A stretch of DNA of 64,000 nucleotides. Origin: Octopus vulgaris. Lineage: Eukaryota. Under the pieces are notes generated by a model. The model had not been told where the DNA came from. It did not search any database and saw only the letters and a program-made list of their open reading frames with translations. Each line of letters opens with the position of its first letter. Position 1 is the first letter of the stretch. The position numbers were made by a program, and so were the translations under genes. The stretch lies in the NCBI GenBank assembly GCA_951406725.2, contig OX597821.1, positions 89,032,001 to 89,096,000 of the forward strand. Reading direction: 5' to 3'. Shown piece after piece: positions 1 to 64,000 of the stretch.

Positions 1-421
1 GTTCTCTTTTAGAGAGACTTAGTTATTTTAATATTTCTATTATTGAAAACAAGTGGATGTATTCCACCGAAACTAGGTAAATAAAACCATCGAACAGAGA
101 TTGTCGGAAGCGACACCTACTGGCTGGCTACGCTGCATTGAAAAGGGGCAATACCCCGAAACGCGTCTGTAGCTGCCGGTCAAGTAGTGTGGAGCGACTG
201 ACCTCCCTTGTTCGAAGGTTATATGGATACAGTTTGTGTATCAAATAGCTAACTTAAGGCGATGGCCATTTTTTAATATTTCATGGGAGCTACCATAAGC
301 GGACAGCTTTTTCTTATTTTTATAAGAATGCCATATTAGTATGGCGATAACTGGCGATTATTTTCCGGGAACGCTGCCGCTGTTCTCTTTTAGAGAGACT
401 TAGTTATTTTAATATTTCTAT

Positions 422-4600: not shown

Positions 4601-4797
4601 GAGAGTATATAGCAATGATAAAACAGCAACGGTAATGAAAATAGAAAGAAGAGATTTAACATCAAGGAGGATACCAGTAATATAACAACTACAAAATGAA
4701 TGAGAGCAGAAAACGAAACAGAAACAACTGCTAAAAGAAGAACAGAAAATACAGCGGTAATAACAGCTATAATAACAATGAGATTATACACGATAGT

Positions 4798-5183
4798 GTG
4801 GAGGCGCAATGGCCCAGTGGTTAGGGCAGCGGACTCGCGGTCATAGGATCGCGGTTTCGATTCCCAGACCGGGCGTTGTGAGTGTTTATTGAGCGAAAAA
4901 CACCTAAAGCTCCACTAGGCTCCGGCAGGGGATGGTGGTGATCCCTGCTGTACTCTTTCACCACAACTTTCTCTCACTCTTACTTCCTGTTTCTGTTGTA
5001 CCTGTATTTCAAAGGGCCGGCCTTGTCACTCTCTGTGTCACGCTGAATATCCCCGAGAACTACGTTAAGGGTACACGTGTCTGTGGAGTGCTCAGCCACT
5101 TACACGTTAATTTCACGAGCAGGCTGTTCCGTTGATTCGGATCAACCGGAACCCTCGTCGTCGTAACCGACGGAGTGCTTCCA
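4798..5183 (+). mobile_element. tRNA(Arg)-like SINE family 2, full length, 10-bp TSD
   Basis: Head GGCGCAATGGCCCAGTGGTTAGGGCAGCGGACTCGCGGTC...GGTTTCGATTCCC; TSD ACACGATAGT at 4788-4797 and 5184-5193. Confidence 0.9.
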
Positions 5184-5421
5184 ACACGATAGTAATAACA
5201 GATATGGCAACAAAAACGTCAACAATAACAACAGTAAACACAACAGAAATAAGCACTATAACGACAGCAACAACAACAATAACCACAACAAAAGGAATGG
5301 CATTAACAAGAGTAGCAGTAAACATTACAAAAGTAATAGTTACGACGGTAATCACAACAGAAATGAAAAATGTTGTAAGAAAAACAATAGCTATAACAGC
5401 AACAGAAACAACATCTATGGT

Positions 5422-5973
5422 TACGACGATGAGGGTTCCGGTTGATCCGATCAACGGAACAGCCTGCTCGTGAAATTAACGTGTAAGTGGCTGAGCACTC
5501 CACAGACACATGTACCCTTAACGAGTACCTACTTATTTACCTATCTAACTAAAGGTATGTATGTACTTATGTGTATATGTATGTTGTTGGAAGCACTCCG
5601 TCGGTTACGACGATGAGGGTTCCGGTTGATCCGAATCAACGGAACAGCCTGCTCGTGAAATTAACGTGTAAGTGGCTGAGCACTCCACAGACACGTGTAC
5701 CCTTAACGTAGTTCTCGGGGATATTCAGCGTGACACAGAGAGTGACAAGGCCGGCCCTTTGAAATACAGGTACAACAGAAACAGGAAGTAAGAGTGAGAG
5801 AAAGTTGTGGTGAAAGAGTACAGCAGGGACCACCACCATCCCCTGCCGGAGCCTCGTGGATGTTTTAGGTGTTTTCGCTCAATAAACACTCACAACGCCC
5901 GGTCTGGGAATCGAAACCGCGATCCTATGACCGCGAGTCTGCTGCCCTAACCACTGGGCCATTGCGCCTCCAC
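5422..5973 (-). mobile_element. Composite SINE family 2 insertion: full copy (5585-5973) + ~60-bp foreign flank + 3' fragment (5422-5525)
   Basis: One TSD ACATCTATGGT (5411-5421 and 5974-5984) encloses all three parts. Confidence 0.85.
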
Positions 5974-7577
5974 ACATCTATGGTCACAACAGTTACAATA
6001 ACACAATAGCTTTATCAGAAATGATAACAACAACAGCTGTAGGGAATGCAGAAACAATAGCTATAACAACAACAGCAAGAACAACAACAACACGGTCAGC
6101 ATCTTTAACACAACATCGTCGTCGTCGTCAGTAAAGGCAAAAACAAATCAAAACCTAAAGTAATCACAGTAGATGATGCAGCAATAAGCATAACAGCCAT
6201 TACAGCTACAACAGGGATAAGAACAACAATAACTGCAACACTATCAAACAACCATATAATCATCATCAACAACAAAAACAACAATAACAATAACAACAAC
6301 AACAACAGCAACAACGACGCGAACGAGAACAACCGCAACATCAAAACACACACGTTTTCAGTGTCTAAAGGAGAGGGATGTAACATTAAGCGCAAATGAA
6401 AGAAGGAAAATAAAAAAGAATAGTTTCGAAAATCTTCGTGAGGTTAGACGTGTTCTAAAAGAGACAAATGTGGAGAATGGCATGTGTGTAAATGGGCAAT
6501 AGTGCATATTGCATGCACCTTTGTGCTGCAATGCAGTGTATTTATCTGGTTTTGGCATCGCATGCAACGTAGTATATTCACACGGAAAGCCATTTTAATC
6601 AGTTTTGTATCTGTGTATGTCGTTCAGTTTGCTTATTTATGTGTATGTGAATGTATGTGCCACGTATGTACAGTGAGTGTGTGTGTGTGTGTGTGTATGT
6701 GTGTGTGTGTAATCATATATATATGTGTATATGTATTTGTGTCTCTGACTTTATTTGTATATATATATATATATATATATGACTGTGAATCTATTCGCTT
6801 ATGTACAGAAATAAACATATATGCACACACACAAATAAATATATATACGTAATACGCAGCTGCACCTCACACACACACGAATATATGTATATACAGTGAT
6901 GGAAAGAGCAAGCAAGAGAAAATGACACTCACACGTAGATATACGTTATTTACAACGAAAAAGAGGAAAGTTATTCAATACATATTGTGAAGTATAATTA
7001 TATGTGTGCGGCTTATGTAGTTTACCGTTACATTAAGTTCCATTTTATTTCGAACAAGAAGGCACGTTGTACTGTAATGAAAATGTTTCTTTATCTAAGA
7101 TAATATCGGATTCTCACACTTTCATTTACACAGACCACATAAGACACTTGCAAACTTTGGTAATTTCTATCTACGGAAGAACATTTTCCTTAAGAAGACA
7201 CATCATACTTCTTAGTGACAATATTTTGGTAGCAGAAATAATTTTTGCTTGACTTAATAACCTTGATACCTCTAGTGGCGAATGGCGTATAGATAAAAAT
7301 GTTCTTTCAGAAGAGAAATGTGGCTTATTTATTCAAAGGTGGAACTAAATGTCAGATCTGGTCTTACGTAAGGTATCACTTGCTGGATATAGGAGGTGAC
7401 TGCTAGGTTATTTGCTCATCTGGTTTGCAGTTCGAAATCCATTGTCACAAGGTTAGTTTACAAACTGAAATATATGTATTTCTTTACTATAAGACGTGGC
7501 AAGAAAATATCTTCTCGCTTCTTCGGGAGTCCATGAAGTAAATTAACATATTCATATACATATATATGCATATAAAT

Positions 7578-19360: not shown

Positions 19361-20594
19361 GTTCCTTCTGTTTCCTACACACAATCATCCCGCTCCTTTT
19401 CATCACAATCAACCACTACCATGTCCCTTAACTTTAATTATATTCGTTATTGACATTGCAGTCATTGTTCTACTCGTCGTCATATTTGTTATCACCAGTC
19501 TTTTTTAGAATCACCATCGTCATCAATTATATTCTTGTCGTCATCTTTGTCATCTTCGTTGTTATTGATGATGATATTGTTCAGCTCCGAGTGCTCCCAC
19601 ATTGAGCTGATCTATGATCAAAAGTTTTCCGTTCTTTAATTTAGGTTTTTCTAGATTATATAACGTATGCTTTCCTTATTATATAAAAGAACAAATTATT
19701 ACCTCAGAGCGGTTTCGCTGTTGTTTATTTCTTATCCTAGTAAACTCGTAGGGATTCCCATGTTAGTTCACTGTTATCGTCACCATATTTAATATAGCTG
19801 TTAAATTCAGTTACGCCGTAACAGAGAACAAAACCGATCAAAATTATTCAAGAAACGGCGATTCATTTTTTTTTCAGTAATTTCCACTTACATACATAAC
19901 CATCTTTCACCCTATTTACTAAATCAATTACAGCTGGCCACTTTGCACTCTCACCAACTTTTATCTATGGTCCGTCCATCAAGCTGGTTTTAATCTATAT
20001 GTTTAAATACACTACATCGTTTGCCTAAATATACACACTCACCACACAAAACAAGCTTCATACACCCAACAATCTCACACCAACACCACGAGACATTAGC
20101 AGTCATTCACTAAAGTGAGCACACAAACACACACAGCATAAACACGCACACATGCACACACAGACGTACGTGCGTGCACGCACACATACACTAGCACACA
20201 CCACACATCACAATATCTCAATGAACCATCGTCTCTTGTACCAATAGACAGATACCCACAAATCTGTCAACCTCTAACTTCTTGTATCACAAGCATTACT
20301 AACCATATATTTTTCTCAGAGAATACTCATTTTCATCGAGTCTGAACTCCTGGTACATCGAACAACCAAGCTATGCATGTGTTTGCCGAAGTAAATATCA
20401 AGCACTTCTTCATTCACACCATACACCTACTGCACATATGATAATGAATGTATCAATACTCACAAACACACAGATATATAACTATATAAAGTATGTATAT
20501 ATACCACACACGTATATATATAATATACCGCGTGTGTATCGTTGGCGATTTTCTTTCTCTGTCTTCCCTTCCTTGGACCTTTCCTTTTTCTATG

Positions 20595-20626
20595 TTCTGA
20601 CGAAGAGTTCTGCTCGAAACGTTAAA
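20595..20626 (+). ncRNA. Minimal hammerhead-like motif
   Basis: TT CTGACGA A GAG TTCTG CTC GAAAC GT T AAA; weak stem I, extra A after A9. Confidence 0.55.
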
Positions 20627-20721
20627 TCCTCTATCCTTCTTTCCTTTCCTGAGCATCCAATAACACTAGATTTGTTTCACGTCAACGCGTTGTTGTGTTT
20701 TCGCTTTGCTCATGTTTGGAG

Positions 20722-40718: not shown

Positions 40719-43700
40719 CTAGTTTGTGAATCCACCTCTGATACGTGGCACTTGATCAACAAGGGAGTTCGATGCTGCTGCCCGCATCCGTGTCTCCTGT
40801 CGTGAGGTAGGTTCATCTGGGACTCCCAACAAGAAGAGATCCAGTTTAGTTTTAAAGAAACCCACATCCACACCATGTAAGTCTCTCAGGCATTTAGGGA
40901 GGATGTTAAAGAGCTGTGGTCCTCTGAAACCCAAGCTGTTGCAGTATCTGGACCTGTATTTTGATGGTGATGTTGGAATCCTTGGCACCACGCAGCGGCG
41001 CCCCGTTCTGCGGTTGGAGTAACTTTGAATGCCAAAGTTTGGGACAAGACCCTCCAGGATTTTCCAGATGTATATCACTGCATATCTCTCCCGCCTCCGC
41101 TCCAGGGAGAAGAGGTTTAATACCTTCAGTCTTTCCCAGTAGCTGACATTTTGCATTGAGACGATTTTCTTTGTGTAGCTTCTCTGAGTTGCTTCGAGTT
41201 CTGCTGTTTGTTTTATATTGTGTGGTGACCAAAGTTGGGAGCAGTAGTCCAAGCGGCTGAGGACAAATGTTTTCCATAGGACCATCAGTGTCTCCTTCTC
41301 TCTTGTTCTGAAAGTTCGGAGAATCCATCCAGCTAGCCGTCTGCATTTTATCACCAGATTAGCAATATGCATTTGGAAAGATGCATCATTGCTCATGTCA
41401 ATGCCCAGGTCACGCACTGATTTTGACTCAGGGATTGCAATTCTTCCTGGGCCAGTGTATCCAGTCTTCACGTCATTTACCTTTGTGTGCCAGTAGCGCA
41501 GGGCCTGGAACTTACCTGCATTAAACTGCATGTTGTTGTCCGCAGCCCACCTGTATATTGTGTCCAGCTCATGTTGCAGATGCGCAATATTTTCAGGGTT
41601 TTGTATTGCGTGGGAGACTTTTGTGTCATCTGCATAGCTAGCAAGGGTGGTCATCGTAGCAACTGAAGGCATGTCTGAAAGGGCCACTATGAACATCAGT
41701 GGCCCCAAGACAGTGCCCTGTGGGACACCGCTTGTTATTTGCGTTTCCCTGGAGGTGGCTCCATTGCTCACAACTGCCTGTTTTCTGTCTTTTAGGAAGT
41801 TGTGCAGCCACTCTCCAAGTTTCCCGCCTATGCCGAGACCACGCAGTTTGTGACAGATCATACCATGGTCGACTTTATCAAAGGCTTTTGCAAAGTCAAG
41901 ATATATTACATCCACATTTGAGCCATTTAGTAGCTGTTTCAACACCCAGTCATAGTGTTGCAGGAGCTGTGTTAGGCAGCCTCTACCTGGTCGAAATCCA
42001 TGCTGGGTGTCAGACAGTAAGTCATTTTCTTCAAGGAACATGATTAGTTTCTTACGGACTATTCGTTCCATGACTTTGCTGATGTGTGAGGTCAGAGAGA
42101 TAGGCCTATAATTTTTAGCATCTGCTCTGCTACCTCCCTTATGGATAGGGCATATTACCCCCTCTTTCAGTTTGACTGGGAGCTTACCACTTGCAAGAAA
42201 GCTCTGAAAAAGAAGCTGTAGCGGTTTTGCAAGGGCTCGTTTGCACGATTTGAGAAGGATCGCTGGGAATCCATCAGGTCCAGCAGCTGAGTTTGTGTCA
42301 ATCTCATCAATGGCTAGTGTGATATCATCTTCTTCGATGTTGATGTACTCAATTTTTGTCTCTTTGGCCGCTGGTAAAGTGGCAAAGAATTCTTCTGGGT
42401 TGTTTACTTGCCTGTGTCCTAGAGGTGTAGTGAACACACTTTGGAACTGTTCGTTCAGTATTTCACTTATCCTCGTGGGATTTCCTGTGAGAGAGCCATC
42501 TTTTTGGAAGAGAGGTCCTATTCTCTGGTGCACTGTGGCTGTCTCTTTGGCAAACTTAAAGAAAGCTTTAGGGTTTGATTTTATATTTTCTATTACCCAA
42601 GCTTCTTTATCTGCTCTCTCCTTTTCATGGGACTGATGTAGACTTTTCTCAGTTTCCATTAGCATTCTTTCGAGCCGAGACTTCTCACCACTTTTGGTGT
42701 GCTTGCTCAGGCGGTTTGCAATCCTTGTCCGTCGTCTCATAAGAATCCTCCTTTCTCTAGGGATCCTGTTTTTATTCTTGTGTGTGCTGGCCCTGCACAT
42801 TGGGACATATTTGTCACATATGGCTTGTATTATGGACATGAAGTGTTTGTGTTTCATGTTTATGTCCGGTGTGGAGAGACATTCAGGCCAATCCTGTTTG
42901 AGGATCTCTTTCTCAATCGACTTCCAGTTGGCTTTATGAAAGTTTAAGTTGGAGAGATGGTGGGTGCTTCGTATAGGCTGTGTGTCTGCGGGGGCTTTTG
43001 TTCCATACATAGACAGCTCTATTATGTTGTGATCCGAGATCATTGTCGGCATCACATTAACATTATGGATAATATCCATATTGTTTGTAAAGCAGAGATC
43101 CAGTATATTATCTGCCCTTGTTGGTTGCAGAACTATTTGCTCCATGAAAGAGGTATTTGTGAGATGGAGCAGGGACTCCACCTGTGCCTGCTGATGGTGT
43201 GTCATCCCTGGGAGCATCTGCCCCCCAGGCCATTCCACATTGGGGAGGTTAAAGTCACCCATGAAGAATACACTGTTGTGCTGTTCAAGGTTGGTGAGGA
43301 CTTCTCCTATTTTTGTTAGGCAGTCTTCAAACATGCCTGAGTGTTTTGGGGCGTCTGGTGGGCGATATGTAGTGCATATGACGATATTCAGTTGTCTTAT
43401 GTGTACAATTTGAGTTTCACATACTGAGTTTGAATATGACAGCAGGACCTGGGGCGTGAGGTCATCTCGGATGTACATTGCAACTCCACCATGGCTCCTC
43501 CCTTTTCTATCTGTGCGTATGACTGCATATTGCGGCATGTGTATTTCTGCATCACCTATATCGGGTTCAAGATGCGTTTCTGTGAGTGCCATGCATATAG
43601 CTTGATTGCATGTCACAAGGTCTCTCAGGAATGAAATTTTCTTTTTACAGTTTCCGCGCAGCAGCCCTCCTACATTCAGTAGAAATATTTTTGTGGTGTG

Positions 43701-43823
43701 TGTGTTGGTGTTGGTGTCTGTGGTGGCCATCCTGCATCTGTTGGAGGTGGCCTTATGTGGTGGTAGTTCCAGCTTTGTGCTTGTAGCCAGGTCAGCTGCT
43801 GAACAATTTTTTGTGCCATGCAC
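40719..43823 (-). CDS. LINE ORF2: APE endonuclease + reverse transcriptase (1034 aa; alternative start at 43730)
   Basis: APE motifs LNVGG, TETHL, YRPP, GDFN, LDL, SDH; RT motifs NYRPISLTS, QHGF, DFAKAFD, GVPQGTVLGP, YADD; CR1-type SLERRR. Confidence 0.95.
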   Translation of the reverse strand: MHGTKNCSAADLATSTKLELPPHKATSNRCRMATTDTNTNTHTTKIFLLNVGGLLRGNCKKKISFLRDLVTCNQAICMALTETHLEPDIGDAEIHMPQYAVIRTDRKGRSHGGVAMYIRDDLTPQVLLSYSNSVCETQIVHIRQLNIVICTTYRPPDAPKHSGMFEDCLTKIGEVLTNLEQHNSVFFMGDFNLPNVEWPGGQMLPGMTHHQQAQVESLLHLTNTSFMEQIVLQPTRADNILDLCFTNNMDIIHNVNVMPTMISDHNIIELSMYGTKAPADTQPIRSTHHLSNLNFHKANWKSIEKEILKQDWPECLSTPDINMKHKHFMSIIQAICDKYVPMCRASTHKNKNRIPRERRILMRRRTRIANRLSKHTKSGEKSRLERMLMETEKSLHQSHEKERADKEAWVIENIKSNPKAFFKFAKETATVHQRIGPLFQKDGSLTGNPTRISEILNEQFQSVFTTPLGHRQVNNPEEFFATLPAAKETKIEYINIEEDDITLAIDEIDTNSAAGPDGFPAILLKSCKRALAKPLQLLFQSFLASGKLPVKLKEGVICPIHKGGSRADAKNYRPISLTSHISKVMERIVRKKLIMFLEENDLLSDTQHGFRPGRGCLTQLLQHYDWVLKQLLNGSNVDVIYLDFAKAFDKVDHGMICHKLRGLGIGGKLGEWLHNFLKDRKQAVVSNGATSRETQITSGVPQGTVLGPLMFIVALSDMPSVATMTTLASYADDTKVSHAIQNPENIAHLQHELDTIYRWAADNNMQFNAGKFQALRYWHTKVNDVKTGYTGPGRIAIPESKSVRDLGIDMSNDASFQMHIANLVIKCRRLAGWILRTFRTREKETLMVLWKTFVLSRLDYCSQLWSPHNIKQTAELEATQRSYTKKIVSMQNVSYWERLKVLNLFSLERRRERYAVIYIWKILEGLVPNFGIQSYSNRRTGRRCVVPRIPTSPSKYRSRYCNSLGFRGPQLFNILPKCLRDLHGVDVGFFKTKLDLFLLGVPDEPTSRQETRMRAAASNSLVDQVPRIRGGFTN

Positions 43824-44577
43824 AAAAAGACTGCTGTTCAGCTGCCGCCCTTCTCACATCTGGGTGAAGCTGGCCACCTGTTGGGTTTCCGCGCACCACA
43901 TCTGCATACCGTCTTTCAGTAGTGGTCAGTGCGCTTTTTTCCCTTCTTTTAACTTTTTGTTTTTGTTTTTGTTCTCCCTGAGGGAGGGACCTCTGTCTCG
44001 CGTCCGTGCGGTTTTGGTAGGGCCTCCGATGTGCAAAGCGACAGTTTGCACCTTCAACGCCGTACCAGCAGTCCCCCCTCAGGTAGAATTTGCAGGTGTT
44101 TCTTTCCCTGCCCTTACAGTTTTTGCTGGGGTCCCTCTGCTTTCTCTGGACAGGGCTTCCTTTAGCCTTGATTCTGTCACCCTTTACCTCCTGCTTCCCA
44201 TCAATTCCAGGGTGCCTTTCCTTTCTTGCGGCCATCGCACCTCTTTGGTCTTCAGTTGTGGTGTTGGAAGCTGGACATGTGTCATCGTTTCCCTGTGTTC
44301 CAGGCTTCTCCATTTGGCTCTGGATGCTTTCCTCATCCTTTTGGCCCTCCCTGCTGCCGTCACCTCCCAGGATGATGTCCAGGGTGTCCACATGTTGCCT
44401 GATTAGAGCGTACGAACGGATAACTTCTCTCTTCTTTCGCTCTATCTGGGCGGTGGTTCTCGAAAAATTGTTGCTTTTCAGCGCCGCAGCAATAATGTCG
44501 TTCGGCGAGTCGTCCTCAGCGATCTTCCAAGCGCGGACGAACAATTGCACCTCTCTCGCAGACCAGTTTCTTGCCAT
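43792..44577 (-). CDS. LINE ORF1 (261 aa), Myb/SANT-trihelix-like N-terminus and CCCH zinc finger
   Basis: Directly upstream of ORF2; [13 protein letters not shown]...IAAAL...[11 protein letters not shown]...Y; [22 protein letters not shown]. Confidence 0.8.
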
Positions 44578-45239
44578 TTTCTTCTAGTGAAATATAGGAA
44601 CAGAGAGAGAGATAGAGAAGGAGAGATATGGAGAGGGAGAAGAGAAAGGAGAAAAGCCAGGGGGGATAGAGAGAGAGACGAGGGGATTTTCCTGAGAGAA
44701 GAGAGAAAGAGAGAAAATAAGAGGGAAAAAAGAGAAAGGTGAGAGAATGGCAGGTCAGCAGGGGGAGAGTGAGCGGGATAGAGGTGTAGTAGAAAGGGAC
44801 AGGGTGGAAAAGTGAGACAAGAGGGTGGACCCTAGGGGGGCAGGGAGAAGAAAGGCGGAGAGATAAAATGGAGAGGAAGAGAGAGATGAAATGGAGAGGG
44901 AGAGAGAGAGAGGGCAGGATAGAGGTACCAGGGAGTGAAGTAAAGGGACAGAGAGGGTGGTGTGGAGGAAGGAGACAGAGAGAGGAAAAAAGAGACAGGG
45001 GGGTGGTGAGCCTTAGAGGGAACAGGGAGAGGAAAGGTAGGAAGAAAAAAGGGGGAAGAGGAAGAGAGGGGGCGCAACAAAGTGTAGTAAAGAGACAGGG
45101 AGGGTGGTGTAGAGAAAGAAATAAGGGGACAGAAGGGGAAGAGGAAAAGGGGTTTGACCTGTGAAGGAGCGGAGAGGAAAGAGGCAGAGAGAGGGAGGGG
45201 GAGTAACAGAGAGAGAGAGAGAGAGAAAGAGGGCGGTAT

Positions 45240-45591: not shown

Positions 45592-46179
45592 TTCCTTTGA
45601 CGCCTGTGCAGAAATTTATTTGTTTTCAAAGAGTGTGCAGTGTGAGAGTTGCATTACATGTATGTGCGCGTATGTGTGCGTGTGTATACGTATATATATA
45701 TATTTAGATTGATAGATTGCTAAATATTGATATTAATATAGATTTATTGTACGTAAGTGAATAAATTCATTAGTATCATACTAAGAATCATTCTTCATGA
45801 CAGATAGACTGCTTAATAAAAATGAAAAATATCAAATCTAGATCGATTATTTCACTAAAATGGATTGCTTCTGAAAAAGAATGTTCTTAAAATATTTGCT
45901 GTCGTACCGAGTCACCTAATATGTTTACTAGTCAAATACACGTTAGTGAATGGTGACATGATGGCTTCATCATCAGTGTTAAAAAAGTTTTATCAGATGA
46001 GAGAAGCTGTGCAATGTCTATAAAGAACGAATATACAGTTGAAGTAATCGAATGCTTGTTTACAAACTGTTTGCAAACCAAGACTTTTTCGATGACTGTG
46101 TAACAGTTATGGAGATTTCAATTCAATGCAGCAAAACTCGTCTTGAATGCCTCATGTTTACATAAATACATACATATAC

Positions 46180-46566
46180 GGAGGCGCAATGGCCCAGTGG
46201 TTAGGGCAGCGGACTCTCGGTCATAGGATCGCCGTTTCGATTCCCAAACCGGGCATTGTGAGTGTTTATTGAGCGAAAACACCTAAAAGCTCCACGAGGC
46301 TCCGGCAGGGGATGGTGGTGATCCCTGCTGTACTCTTTCACCACAACTCTCTCTCACTCTTACTTCCTGTTTCTGTGGTACCTGTATTTCAAAGGGCCGG
46401 CCTTGTCACTCTCTGTGTCACGCTGAATATCCCCGAGAACTACGTTAAGGGTACACGTGTCTGTGGAGTGCTCAGCCACTTACACGTTAATTTCACGAGC
46501 AGGCTGTTCCGTTGATTCGGATCAACCGGAACCCTCATCGTCGTAACCGACGGAGTGCTTCCAACA
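46180..46566 (+). mobile_element. SINE family 2 full copy, 12-bp TSD
   Basis: TSD ACATACATATAC at 46168-46179 and 46567-46578. Confidence 0.9.
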
Positions 46567-46654
46567 ACATACATATACACATAACTACATACATACCTTT
46601 AGTTAGATAGGTAAATAAGTAGGTAGATATTATATATGTATATATGATTGTGCT

Positions 46655-48150: not shown

Positions 48151-48238
48151 GAGTTTCTTCGAGACGTTTATTTTATTTGCTTTTAACCCAAAGCAAGTCT
48201 TGTACTTTCGTCACTGGAAAAAGGATATATATATATAT

Positions 48239-48566
48239 GCAACGGGAACCTACTTTTCATCGACGACCGGTGATTGTCACACACTGATGACGGGTCAATA
48301 CCCAGAAACTCGAGTTCGTGTGTATCATACAGGTTTAAGATGGGAAGGATGGCTTCCCTTTGCAAATACTGATACAGCACACAAAGTTTGTCAATAACCA
48401 GCTGGAAGAGGTGTCCTCCTGGGGCTACAAGCTACAGTAGCATCCACCCTTAAGGGTTAGCCACATTTAAGTGGCAATTATACTTCGCGATGTCGTGCAG
48501 CTACTGTTTATACCTCGCTCAGAGATTTATTATAGTCTCGGAAATATTGTTAAAAATACTGCGAAT
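48239..48566 (+). mobile_element. ~330-bp structured HHR element between (TA)n tracts (candidate retrozyme)
   Basis: Rod 48239-48363 encloses the HHR, followed by hairpins GCTAC/GTAGC, ACCCTT/AAGGGT, GCCAC/GTGGC, GAGAT/GTCTC. Confidence 0.7.
48271..48327 (+). ncRNA. Type I hammerhead ribozyme, canonical core
   Basis: TGAT TGT CACACA CTGATGA C GGG TCAATA CCC A GAAAC TCGA GT T CGTGTG T ATCA; mismatches at the base of stems I and II. Confidence 0.8.
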
Positions 48567-48836
48567 TATATATATATATATATATCAGCAAAATTTAGAT
48601 TAGTTAAAATATGTTTGTGACATATTTCAACTGCTAAAAGGCAAATTTGCTGCAGTTACCGTGGAAAAATATCTCTCTTATGGTAAAAATTTGTGAAGAC
48701 ACAAATTTCTTTCAATGTCGACATCTTTCAAGAATCCCAGACATCGTTGTTTCGAATTTTTTAACTCTTGTCAATGGGATGTACCCAAGAGAGGCAACTC
48801 TGAACAAACTGTTATGTAATAATAATAATAATAATG

Positions 48837-53388: not shown

Positions 53389-53430
<42 letters not shown>

Positions 53431-53573
53431 TGCATTTTTACCTTGTTAACAATAAACACGGAAAAAATAAATAAATAGTTACCAGTGTAGCAAAAAATCT
53501 CACAAGTAAAGAGGTTGTAACTCCTTGTTTATAAAGGTAGAAACTTCGTGTTTACGTGGAATTTTTTTGTATA

Positions 53574-55749
53574 ATATATGAATAAATAAATGGAGTTTAA
53601 AGCAGGTATAAATCAAATATTTTTACTTTCGACACATGTTTCGAAAATTCCACTGATATCATTCAAAAGAATAAATGGTATAAACAACGCAATCTTCTCT
53701 TAAGGAAAGTGAAAAAACGAAACTCGTCAATAAGACATTTTAGCCAAAAATGATGGATTTGTATAACGATTAACTGAACGCTATTAATAGAGTTTAAAAA
53801 AATATTTATGTGATGTAAGGTCAGAAGTAACTTACAGAAAGAGTAGGGATATTAATAGTGAATGTTAAATATAAAGGAAATTAAAGTTTAAATTCTATAT
53901 AATGATAGAGATTACTTATATGCACTAAAGGTCTGTCTTTGACAATGTTTACATCTGTATGCTCACTCTATAATTGTGTTTACTAGGGGATTTTTAGAAA
54001 AAATAATGGAAAATAGCTCAGAATTACAGAGAATACAGAATTCCTTGCCTTTGTCATAACGTATCGAGATTGAGAGAATCAACCGTTCTAAATGAAATTG
54101 TTCATTGTGGTCTTTTAGATCCCAAATTAGTTTGCTGAGACCAGTACTATTACGTTTATTTCTATCTCTAAATGTTGAGTAATGGATAGAAATTCTTTTA
54201 GATAACTCTAACGATGTGCTTCCAATGTAAAATCGTACTTTATTACGAGTACTGATTATACACAGGTATATAGAATTTTTTATCTTAGAGTTACTTGACG
54301 TAAACTTAATTCTATTGAAATTGACTTCAGATACAATAACCTTGTTATTAATATTTCTAGAGGGCTGGATGGTATTAGCAAAATTAATGTTAGTATTAGT
54401 AAATGTATTAATAGTTAACAGTTTGTTATTATGTAAGGAGATAATTTGTAAGAGATTCTTTGTGTTGGAAAAACCGATCCTAACCGTATGTGAATTGATA
54501 ATAGAGTAATACCTAGAATTCTTTGGAAAATTCTTAACAATAGCTTCACGAAAGAGCAGTGGGACATTAGATTTACTTTGTCTCTTGTATGGAACTATTA
54601 ACCAAATATTTTTACTAGTATTGATAGCGTAATTATTTTTGAAATTGTTATATTTACTTTTAGAACGATAATACGGGATTAAATAAGGGTTAACTCCCTT
54701 CATTCGCTTTGTATCGGTGCATAAGTTACGTTTGTTATCAATAATTCTTTTACAACTAGAAATCATATCTACATTATTGAATTTACAATTAGACTGAGTA
54801 GAATCAATGTAGAAGATTTTCTCTGTATAACCTGCTTTAATTAAGGCAGAGTTATAAAATTCAGCGTTATCATTGAAAATATCAACATTAGCAGATAATT
54901 TAGATAATCTAAATGAAATATTCTTAACTAAGTTCTTAGTAATTGCCCTACGATGATTACTAAATTTGCTAATGTACTTAAGATTGGTCAACGGTTTACG
55001 ATATGGGAAGTAAGAGTCACTGTGTAAATCAAGCGTAATATCTAAAAAGTTGGCCTTCGTCATATTGTCATCAAAAACGATTTTTAAGCCGAATCTACTG
55101 ACAAATTTAACTAAACTATTCTTAACTTTTTGTACCTTTTGGTTGGAAACATTTTGGAGGTAAAGTAAACAATCATCACGATATAGACCTCCGTAAATGT
55201 TAGGGAACTCTTCTGCCATTTCAAAAAGAATATATATACAGACCAAATCAGCTATTTGTGCTGAATGAGAACTTCCCATTGGTATATCGAAACTATCTGG
55301 TGTGTCTTTACGGACCCACAACAAATCAAATTTAATAATAGATCTTCTGGCTGCCAACACAACATTAATTTCTTCTCGGGTGAGACCAGCTGTGTTATGA
55401 GCGAGCCAAAGTGCCTTATTAAGTACTATTGGATTGATAGATGAATACAAATTTGAAATATCAAACTGAATAAACTTAGTATTCCACTTATTAATAATAG
55501 AACGAAACCAGTCAACTGACGTTATATAATATAACGTTTTTTTAAAACAATATTAATAGCGTTCAGTTAATCGCTATACAAATCCATCATTTTTTACTAA
55601 AATGTCTTATTGACGAGTTTCGTTTTTTCACTTTCCTGAATAGAAGATAGCATTGTTTATAGCATTTATTCTTTTGAATAATATCAGTGGAAACATGTGT
55701 CGAAAGTAAAAATATTTGATTTATACCTGCGTTAAGCTCCATTTATTTA

Positions 55750-55791: not shown

Positions 55792-56241
55792 GGGGGGTCT
55801 GTGTGTTTCTGCGTTTGTCCCCCACCGTCACTTGACAACCTATATTGTATTTAGATCCTGGTAATAAGAAGGACGGCCATTGGTCTCTTTCCCTTGGTCT
55901 CCATAGCCTTGTGGAACGAAACACTTAGTGGCAGTCGATCGCGTGACAAACCATGTGTTCAAGGGCCTCCACCAGATATATCGTATACACAAATATATAA
56001 TACAAACACATGCATATATGAAACACAATCACACATGCCCAGAGATTCATACATGTATCGACATATGCATACATACATACGTACATGCATACATAATACA
56101 TACATACATACATATATATATATATATATTGGTTCTTCTGTTGATCCGGTTTCTTTTATCCTTATTCTTATAGGTATCGTTTTTACTTTGCATTAGTTTT
56201 CCATTGTGATGCAAAAAAAATGAACCAAACATCTATTATAT

Positions 56242-56406
56242 AATCAGAAATATTAAATTTCTAAATATCTCATAGAGATATGTACGGTAGTGGATCGATA
56301 TATAGTGGAAGCATCGACGCTTCCTGTCGGCCTTGACACACCCACTCTATCGCTCCACCACCGTATATATCTCTATGAGATATTTAGAAATTTAATATTT
56401 CTGATT
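56242..56406. repeat. Fold-back (~65-bp arms) whose loop is an inverted copy of 56609-56642
   Basis: 56242-56308 is the reverse complement of 56342-56406. Confidence 0.85.
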
Positions 56407-56455
56407 TTGGTCATCAGTGAATAAACTTCACTGAAAAATATATATATATATATAT

Positions 56456-56588
56456 TTACGAAGTCTAGACAGATATCTTCAGCTAGCAGGCCTCTGCTAC
56501 TCTAGACCGATGATGGGTAAAGACCCTGAAACATGCGTGTCTCTAGATGCAGACCTAGCTGTTGGAGGTATTTGTCTCCCCTTCGTAA
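56456..56588 (+). ncRNA. Type I hammerhead ribozyme with long extended stem I (CCGATGA core)
   Basis: TGC TAC TCTAGA CCGATGA T GGG TAAAGA CCC T GAAAC ATGCGT GT C TCTAGA T GCA; outer pairing GACAGATATCTTCAGC/GTTGGAGGTATTTGTC and TTACGAAG/CTTCGTAA. Confidence 0.85.
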
Positions 56589-56834
56589 ATATATAAGGAC
56601 ACAGGAAATGTGTCAAGGCCGACAGGAAGCGTCGATGCTTCCTAGGGCTAAACAGCGGTGATGCAATTCCCTTACAGGACTGTCACGTTAAGTTGATAGT
56701 AGGCAACCACTTTATCTATTGTATATTTCTATAATAAGTTTAGTCGAATGAATCGATCCCAGCTCATTGATTTTTTTTTTTCTTAAGCCTGGATGTGTAT
56801 ATATAATATATACACATGTATATTATATATATAT

Positions 56835-62356: not shown

Positions 62357-64000
<1,644 letters not shown>

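Follow-up and report, generated by a model that had tools for sequence, protein, structure and literature searches.

The window analysed here comprises 64,000 nt of the Octopus vulgaris genome (GenBank assembly GCA_951406725.2, contig OX597821.1, positions 89,032,001 to 89,096,000 of the forward strand), and all coordinates given below refer to it. The segment 56456-56720 contains a type I hammerhead ribozyme with three stems round a core, an open stem I and an NUH cleavage triplet (GUC, 56539-56541); the hammerhead itself occupies positions 56493-56553 on the plus strand, was recognised both by a strict descriptor and by direct reading, and has its predicted cut after C56541. Stem Ib (56493-56497 paired with 56549-56553) is separated from stem Ia (UCUAGA 56501-56506 / UCUAGA 56542-56547) by an internal loop in which a UAC bulge, 56498-56500, faces the single U56548. 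The core CCGAUGA (56507-56513; the U4C variant) is followed by stem II at 56515-56526 with a U-U apposition, U10.1-U11.1, at its base, by GAAAC at 56528-56532, and by a stem III of three pairs; the ribozyme thus has CCGAUGA where the consensus reads CUGANGA, and U-U where positions 10.1 and 11.1 would normally pair. In loop II, position 56518 departs from the majority of its lineage. The initial annotation had called a type I hammerhead with a UAC/U internal loop, and this is real, as stems, core and GUC can all be read directly; its label "Schistosoma-type" agrees with what we take to be the stem I loop of the Schistosoma ribozyme.

A long interrupted stem spanning 56456-56588 extends hammerhead stem I in the predicted fold, and a hairpin-rich 3' half (56591-56711), delimited by folding, by alignment and by the joining of other 5' arms at 56591-56594, is common to sister families. 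The 265 nt of 56456-56720 fold at -96.7 kcal/mol (z -5.6), a value equalled by none of 200 shuffles, so that the extended pairing across 56456-56588 and the further hairpins downstream (at 56598 and 56625-56642), both noted at the outset, are borne out. At minimum energy the ribozyme is predicted to adopt an inactive hairpin, 4.5 kcal/mol below the active fold (2.3 in the canonical lineage), so that cleavage by the U4C-lineage ribozyme is likely to be weak. With the strict type I descriptor, the 64 kb yield 3 sites; the looser descriptor with a 3x1 loop, which had been proposed as a search tool, gives 5 sites against 0-6 in ten shuffles and proves nothing alone. In Rfam, no hammerhead was matched by 56456-56720 and none was among the best 150 of 376 matches for the whole window; since the core is variant, this silence was not counted against the hammerhead.

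The ribozyme belongs to a larger insertion at 56243-56713, consisting of an inverted arm and a forward arm of 1.06 units and flanked by a 12-bp target-site duplication with one mismatch (left copy 56231-56242, right copy 56714-56725, 11 of 12 bases identical on direct comparison). The inverted arm (56243-56340, minus strand), delimited by the inverted repeats I1 and I2 and by mapping to the repeat unit, is 5'-truncated: it covers unit positions 154-187, jumps over about 65 nt and continues with a 59-nt tail to a distal fixed end, E2, at 56243. The forward arm, mapped to 56336-56713 on the plus strand, ends at a proximal fixed end, E1, at 56711, and the two arms overlap by about 5 bp at 56336-56340. 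The boundaries 56456 and 56720 proposed initially were therefore wrong. No frame of at least 90 aa overlaps 56243-56713, and the element has no ORF for a reverse transcriptase plus GIY-YIG endonuclease. This copy differs from the majority of its lineage at 10 of about 256 positions, which equals the family average (3.6%), and it carries a single hammerhead and so cannot release unit-length RNA by itself. It is probably a dead-end offspring and, taken singly, an ordinary and unremarkable member of its family.

Mapping of 90 loci defined a self-closing unit of 357-362 bp, in the order body, 59-nt tail, 33-nt spacer with a hairpin, (TA)n tract and body again. The (TA)n tract, found at 56438-56455 in the window copy and variable in length between copies, is consequently internal to the unit of about 360 bp and does not mark the start of the module, as had been supposed; at three loci (L042, L049 and L052) other repeats are inserted in it. 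A search of the 2.8-Gb genome with the 265-bp query returned 2771 first-look candidates, 40 of which were scored, and the best 30 of these 40 have 92-96% identity, the window copy itself aside. Exact patterns retrieved 79 copies with a CCGA core and 31 with the canonical core, and a degenerate core pattern gave 172 exact matches against 0 in the reversed control. Family divergence is about 3-4%, and the 172 matches, taken at about 3.5% divergence, suggest an estimated 450 or so hammerhead-bearing copies; the larger number of candidates probably takes in sister families as well, with which the 3' half alone is shared. The high genome-wide abundance first surmised from the window is supported by these counts and by the four hammerhead modules of the window, and the related copies whose absence would have counted against the original reading exist in the hundreds and are dispersed. 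Several characters of metazoan non-LTR retrozymes are present: the unit is non-coding, falls within 150-450 bp and holds a type I hammerhead, and it is multicopy and mobile, with target duplications longer than 4 bp.

Within the family, two lineages can be told apart by core and loop II. A hand count of the 100 matches listed of the 172 gave 61 copies with CC and a 6-nt loop, 1 with CC and a 5-nt loop, 7 with CT and a 6-nt loop, and 31 with CT and a 5-nt loop, so that among these U4C is associated with a loop II of 6 nt (p 5e-18). This association identifies U4C as the master state of the larger lineage and not as decay of one copy; CCGAUGA is inherited, and the proposal that the core would have to be "restored" to CUGAUGA presumed a lesion that this copy does not have. 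According to PMC3088659, U4C has lower activity in vitro, yet supported viroid infectivity, and U10.1-U11.1 is the best tolerated mismatch, both being natural variants with lowered activity; a U-U at the base of helix II is also reported for the axolotl retrozyme (PMC7229834). The U4C core probably weakens cleavage without blocking spread. An apparently lower mutation rate in the core (6/484 versus 3.5%) was dropped as an argument because many loci had been chosen by exact core patterns.

Four full hammerheads lie in the window, at 126-177, 48268-48330, 48729-48783 (minus strand) and 56493-56553. Stem Ia differs in all four modules and is paired in each, with one mismatch at 48268, so the earlier observation that structure is kept as stem Ia changes is upheld by direct reading. 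The modules at 126-177 and 48729-48783 show covariation at U3-A8, which is known to be functional (PMC3088659). As the stems covary across the four modules, the fold has been under selection. The modules had been described as unrelated. On alignment to the unit, 126-177 scores at z 10.8 and 48240-48570 at z 17.2, and the hammerhead-free 3' half alone still scores at z 5.0 and 6.7, respectively, none of 300 shuffles reaching any of these values; both are therefore distant relatives of the unit. The module at 48729-48783 has no detectable homology to the unit, its alignment not exceeding chance (z 1.7).

The surroundings of these modules vary. In window 1-420, a two-armed insertion has the hammerhead at 126-177 as its forward arm, its inverted arm being a tandem array of three units with a 362-bp period. 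The unit at 48238-48570 belongs to a sister family, lies between two TA tracts, and has a canonical core, a UGU/U loop and, next to the cut site, a mismatch; the module at 48729-48783, with a UAC/U loop, stands tail-to-tail with it across one TA tract. Elsewhere, at 20590-20630, a CUGACGA...GAAACGUU motif resembles the minimal hammerhead of Penelope-type elements and is unrelated to the unit.

To characterise the insertions, 13 of the 90 loci were removed as repeats of the same place, leaving 77. Of the 13, L066 was removed wrongly, owing to a LINE that it shares with L041; of the 77, L058-L060 probably stand for a single insertion that was duplicated and so counted three times. The two-armed counts are unaffected in both cases. 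The forward arm ends at E1 in 43 loci, at E2 in 30 and elsewhere in 4, so that 73 of 77 loci use either of two fixed points separated by 59 nt. The loci were picked for holding a hammerhead, a choice that hides short truncated copies, and the ranking of the first 30 on a query stopping at E1 favours that end among them. The 23 two-armed loci include 18 with one arm at each end, 1 with both arms at E2 and 4 that are unclassifiable, a LINE interrupting an arm in at least 2 of these. One end per arm is accordingly found in 18 of the 19 classifiable loci (p 4e-5 against 50:50). Snap-back copying as the source of the inverted arms was set aside, given that the two arms end at different points. Duplications of 10-18 bp flank 15 of the 23 two-armed loci, whereas duplications of at least 10 bp occur in 3.8% of 506 mismatched pairs; among the 54 single-armed loci (of 77), a duplication is present in 10 versus a control of 6.4%, mostly as TA runs. 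The first 10 nt past the ends are 86% AT against a background of 62%, and ATAT or TATA occurs in 50 of 93 against 9%.

This footprint has the features of Penelope-type insertions: two fixed 3' ends, a tail on one end only, partial tandems, an inverted 5'-truncated arm and an AT-rich target. Penelope insertions are described as partial tandems with an inverted 5' copy, a tail on one end and an 8-10-bp duplication, most of them being 5'-truncated (PMC8557442, PMC3846280). For an anole Penelope element, the enzyme is reported to start at two internal sites, the tail corresponding to the distance between both reverse-transcription starts, and to cut and extend both strands in AT-rich DNA, and hammerhead mutants of the element insert normally (PMC11167929).

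A 5'-truncated Penelope-type element is found close to the insertion, at 53430-55745 on the minus strand (53963-55552 in the footprint comparison), with an open frame of 529 aa, inverted terminal repeats and TA tracts on both sides. Its family is young, with several open frames of 778 aa elsewhere in the genome (one at L120). In this family, 25 of 30 forward ends fall at two fixed points 153 nt apart, 11 of 12 classifiable two-armed copies have one of each end, the tail measures 153 nt and the targets are almost pure (TA)n. Comparison with Pfam and PDB did not recognise the ORF. Read by eye, it has DKT and RW-type motifs and no CCHH between the GIY and YIG halves; since the Hydra clade is characterised by DKT, RW-type motifs, absence of CCHH and (TA)n targeting (PMC8557442), these motifs and the end structure suggest a Penelope/Hydra-like protein. 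In 30 loci of this family, the ends have no similarity to the unit, the end-to-end score being reached by 66 of 1000 shuffles, and one decayed copy (L146) shares no ends with the unit either. The neighbouring family is probably not the direct partner of the unit, because it shares no ends with it, has a longer tail and targets TA more strictly. A tblastn search with P0001 on the 90 loci matched only the window locus and one unrelated neighbour, and thus detected no shared Penelope ORF upstream of the unit.

The copies also bear on the template. The forward arm exceeds 1.02 units in 17 of 77 loci, and of 30 copies selected with a pattern that lies downstream of the cut, none begins at the cut, the nearest beginning about 5 nt before it. 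The RNA that was copied had therefore escaped cutting or been re-ligated, and it exceeded one unit in length, which means a circle or a tandem transcript. The natural monomer of 362 nt, from cut to cut, folds as a circle at z -8.5 (60 shuffles) with 63% of its positions paired. Two hammerheads of the family in direct orientation are found at only 1 of the 77 loci (L009), so that no clear source array was seen; a sister family, that of 126-177, has a three-unit array with a 362-bp unit just left of the window (L147, 8681-10000). Contigs of four sequencing runs, guessed to be RNA, cover the family, three of the four lacking the unique flank that a DNA-like run covers; such contigs show neither strand, ends, level nor circles, and no inference on expression was drawn from them. 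The joint of 56702 to 56338 is also present in genomic copies.

A candidate snRNA-type promoter may be located inside the unit, as judged by a motif and its spacing. An ATCAGT-type motif at 56413-56419 (plus strand) stands 62 bp before unit position 20; it is kept in 31 of 77 copies, 45-84 bp before that position and in 21 of the 31 within 53-61 bp, and the same motif occurs 57-61 bp before U2 +1 in 12 of 15 U2 loci. The putative transcription start, at 56475-56493 (plus strand), coincides with a site that is empty in the window copy and is used for insertion by LINEs in other copies, with 14-19 bp duplicated at the fetched junctions. A LINE-type 3' end lies directly before unit position 19-20 in 4 of 90 loci and in 3 of 30 loci of a later set. 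Ten fetched regions yielded 5 insertions with both junctions, each with a 14-19-bp duplication from position 20-21, three being LINEs bearing a reverse transcriptase and two being shorter elements with a zinc-knuckle ORF; the loci with insertions at position 20 are L091, L093, L095 and L096, as well as L092, L094, L156, L161 and L170. Since both junctions were found with duplications, the idea that LINE and unit form one composite element was rejected. A similar LINE 3' end adjoins U2 +1 in 2 of 15 U2 loci (L106 and L113). The layout of their ORFs, and not a tree, suggests that the inserting LINEs are of the Tx1 type.

Two parallels are pertinent here. Newt satellite 2, as cited in PMC2220036, is a repeat that carries both a hammerhead and an snRNA-type promoter, and the octopus unit resembles it to the extent that motif and spacing are a guide. 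Target-specific Tx1 LINEs include Keno in U2, Tx1L in Tx1D, and Tx1-Mar (PMC4494074); the octopus LINEs are similar in having a single insertion site within a multicopy element or U2, although a LINE targeting a hammerhead repeat, as seen here, is not among the Tx1 targets described in the available part of that source.

Taken together, the locus carries not a free-standing ribozyme module, as initially proposed, but one copy of a dispersed, non-coding, retrozyme-type repeat of about 360 bp with a type I hammerhead and a Penelope-type footprint, which we consider, with good confidence, to be most likely a non-LTR retrozyme pasted by Penelope-like enzymes. Starting from the directly observed unit, copy number, two fixed 3' ends, inverted arms, target duplications and AT-rich targets, the following route may be envisaged. 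Source loci would be transcribed from the internal snRNA-type promoter with a start near unit position 20, and multi-unit transcripts would be cut at GUC and probably closed into circles of about 360 nt. A Penelope-type endonuclease would cut AT-rich DNA with a stagger of about 12 nt, and the two DNA 3' ends would each prime reverse transcription, one at each of the fixed sites 59 nt apart. The two cDNAs would run through the hammerhead site of an uncut or re-ligated template and be joined at short microhomologies.

Several other readings of the same data were weighed. If the unit were the solo pseudo-LTR, i.e., the 5'-truncated end of an autonomous Penelope element, all features of its ends would be as observed, as they match those of pseudo-LTRs (PMC8557442, PMC3846280), Xenopus retrozymes are reported to be homologous to pseudo-LTRs (10.64898/2026.07.22.740005), and 5' truncation is usual for Penelope insertions. 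However, the tail runs via the spacer and the TA tract into the next unit, leaving no room for an ORF, the tblastn search of the 90 loci disclosed no shared Penelope ORF upstream, and the hammerhead is full and canonical, not of the minimal type of most animal Penelope elements (PMC4209133), which makes this origin improbable. A SINE-like element moved by an AP-endonuclease LINE is more improbable still. LINEs make 10-19-bp duplications and 5' inversions, and the LINE 3' ends that adjoin unit position 19-20 (4/90 and 3/30 loci) might be taken for those of such a mover; but in 5 insertions the LINE lies inside the unit with its own 14-19-bp duplication and is therefore a later parasite of the unit, and neither two fixed 3' ends nor tail-out inverted arms both ending at 3' ends are LINE features. 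As to a host-domesticated regulatory ribozyme at this locus, the intact fold and nothing further speaks for it, and the copy is one of hundreds, with 10 differences in about 256 positions (3.6%, the family average), one of them in loop II, so that we give this reading hardly any credence.

The role of the ribozyme is a separate question. The Penelope step could be kept and the template be a linear multi-unit or read-through RNA, with no circle and with the ribozyme largely a passenger. The normal insertion of hammerhead mutants of the anole element (PMC11167929), the U4C core of the larger lineage, and 7 of 54 single-arm copies that begin at 17-20 like a capped transcript (3 of the 7 being LINE junctions) are in line with this possibility. 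Against it, many copies continue 5' of the predicted start, across the promoter motif and into the tail of the previous unit, so a circle or a tandem source is needed, and tandem sources are rare in the sample; the covariation of stems across the four window modules, a mark of selection on the fold, also counts against it. A linear template is therefore possible, if on the whole rather unlikely, and a retrozyme copied from a circle by a Penelope-like enzyme remains the preferred reading. An extension of the latter is offered more tentatively, as a speculation that we expect to be wrong more readily than right: the weakened ribozyme, with U4C, U-U and a 6-nt loop II, might have out-spread its canonical sister, slow cleavage keeping the RNA intact or closed until the Penelope enzyme copies one circle from both cut strands at two fixed sites. 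The unit would borrow an snRNA-type promoter and be parasitised there by site-specific LINEs, so that Penelope helper, ribozyme circle and promoter-capturing LINE would form a system of three tiers.

That repeats with type I hammerheads abound in animals, including molluscs, has already been described (PMC7229834), among them the non-LTR retrozymes of mussel (350-390 bp) and axolotl (330/350 bp, with HHR_Amex2), for which cleavage and circles were demonstrated (Cervera and de la Pena 2020, PMC7229834). The octopus family resembles these in its canonical-size type I hammerhead within a non-coding, highly self-paired unit of about 360 bp, in duplications longer than 4 bp and in the U-U that HHR_Amex2 likewise has at the base of helix II, and Penelope elements were proposed in PMC7229834 as mobilisers. 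It differs in that the sampled copies are mostly dispersed and of 0.7-1.7 units, not long arrays, in the U4C core of its larger lineage and in being known here from sequence alone; two fixed ends and two-armed insertions are not among the features described in the available part of PMC7229834. Li, Clavereau and Pollet (2026) regard retrozymes as non-autonomous Penelope derivatives on the grounds of co-occurrence and pseudo-LTR homology, mainly in vertebrates, and found no cleavage in vitro for 8 of 9 predicted Xenopus retrozymes (10.64898/2026.07.22.740005). The partner class is the same and monomeric offspring copies are likewise described in that work, whereas the octopus evidence is an insertion footprint, with no pseudo-LTR homologue in the one family tested. 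With GIY-YIG Penelope-like elements the octopus unit has in common partial tandems, an inverted 5' arm, a tail on one end, AT-rich or (TA)n targets and two internal start sites, one of them in an AC-rich stretch; it differs from them in lacking an ORF, in a tail of 59 versus 30-40 nt, and in a full hammerhead in place of the minimal ones described for Penelope elements (PMC4209133).

The family is thus a known kind of element, an animal retrozyme, distinguished by a lineage whose core is variant and by a Penelope footprint of unusual clarity. In the literature on octopus and cephalopod hammerheads, mollusc Tx1 targets and Penelope priming, among the matches listed and outside subscription papers and Repbase, neither the family nor such a retrozyme footprint is described. 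The Penelope route for animal retrozymes has so far been argued from co-occurrence and homology; two fixed ends, each belonging to one arm, and a duplication of about 12 bp predict the exact RNA positions at which a Penelope enzyme should start, which could be tested in vitro on a 360-nt template. With its paired canonical and U4C lineages, the family also offers a natural experiment on the need for cleavage in spreading.

Other repeats were observed in the window. A LINE ORF2 of 1044 aa, with endonuclease and reverse transcriptase domains by Pfam, occupies 40719-43853 and is accompanied by a zinc-finger frame at 43792-44583; a partial relative, with 74% identity, is found at 62760-63998, at the end of the window. 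An inverted-repeat structure at 4796-5982 has two arms of about 390 bp that are 98% alike, and a further copy is present at 46159-46625.
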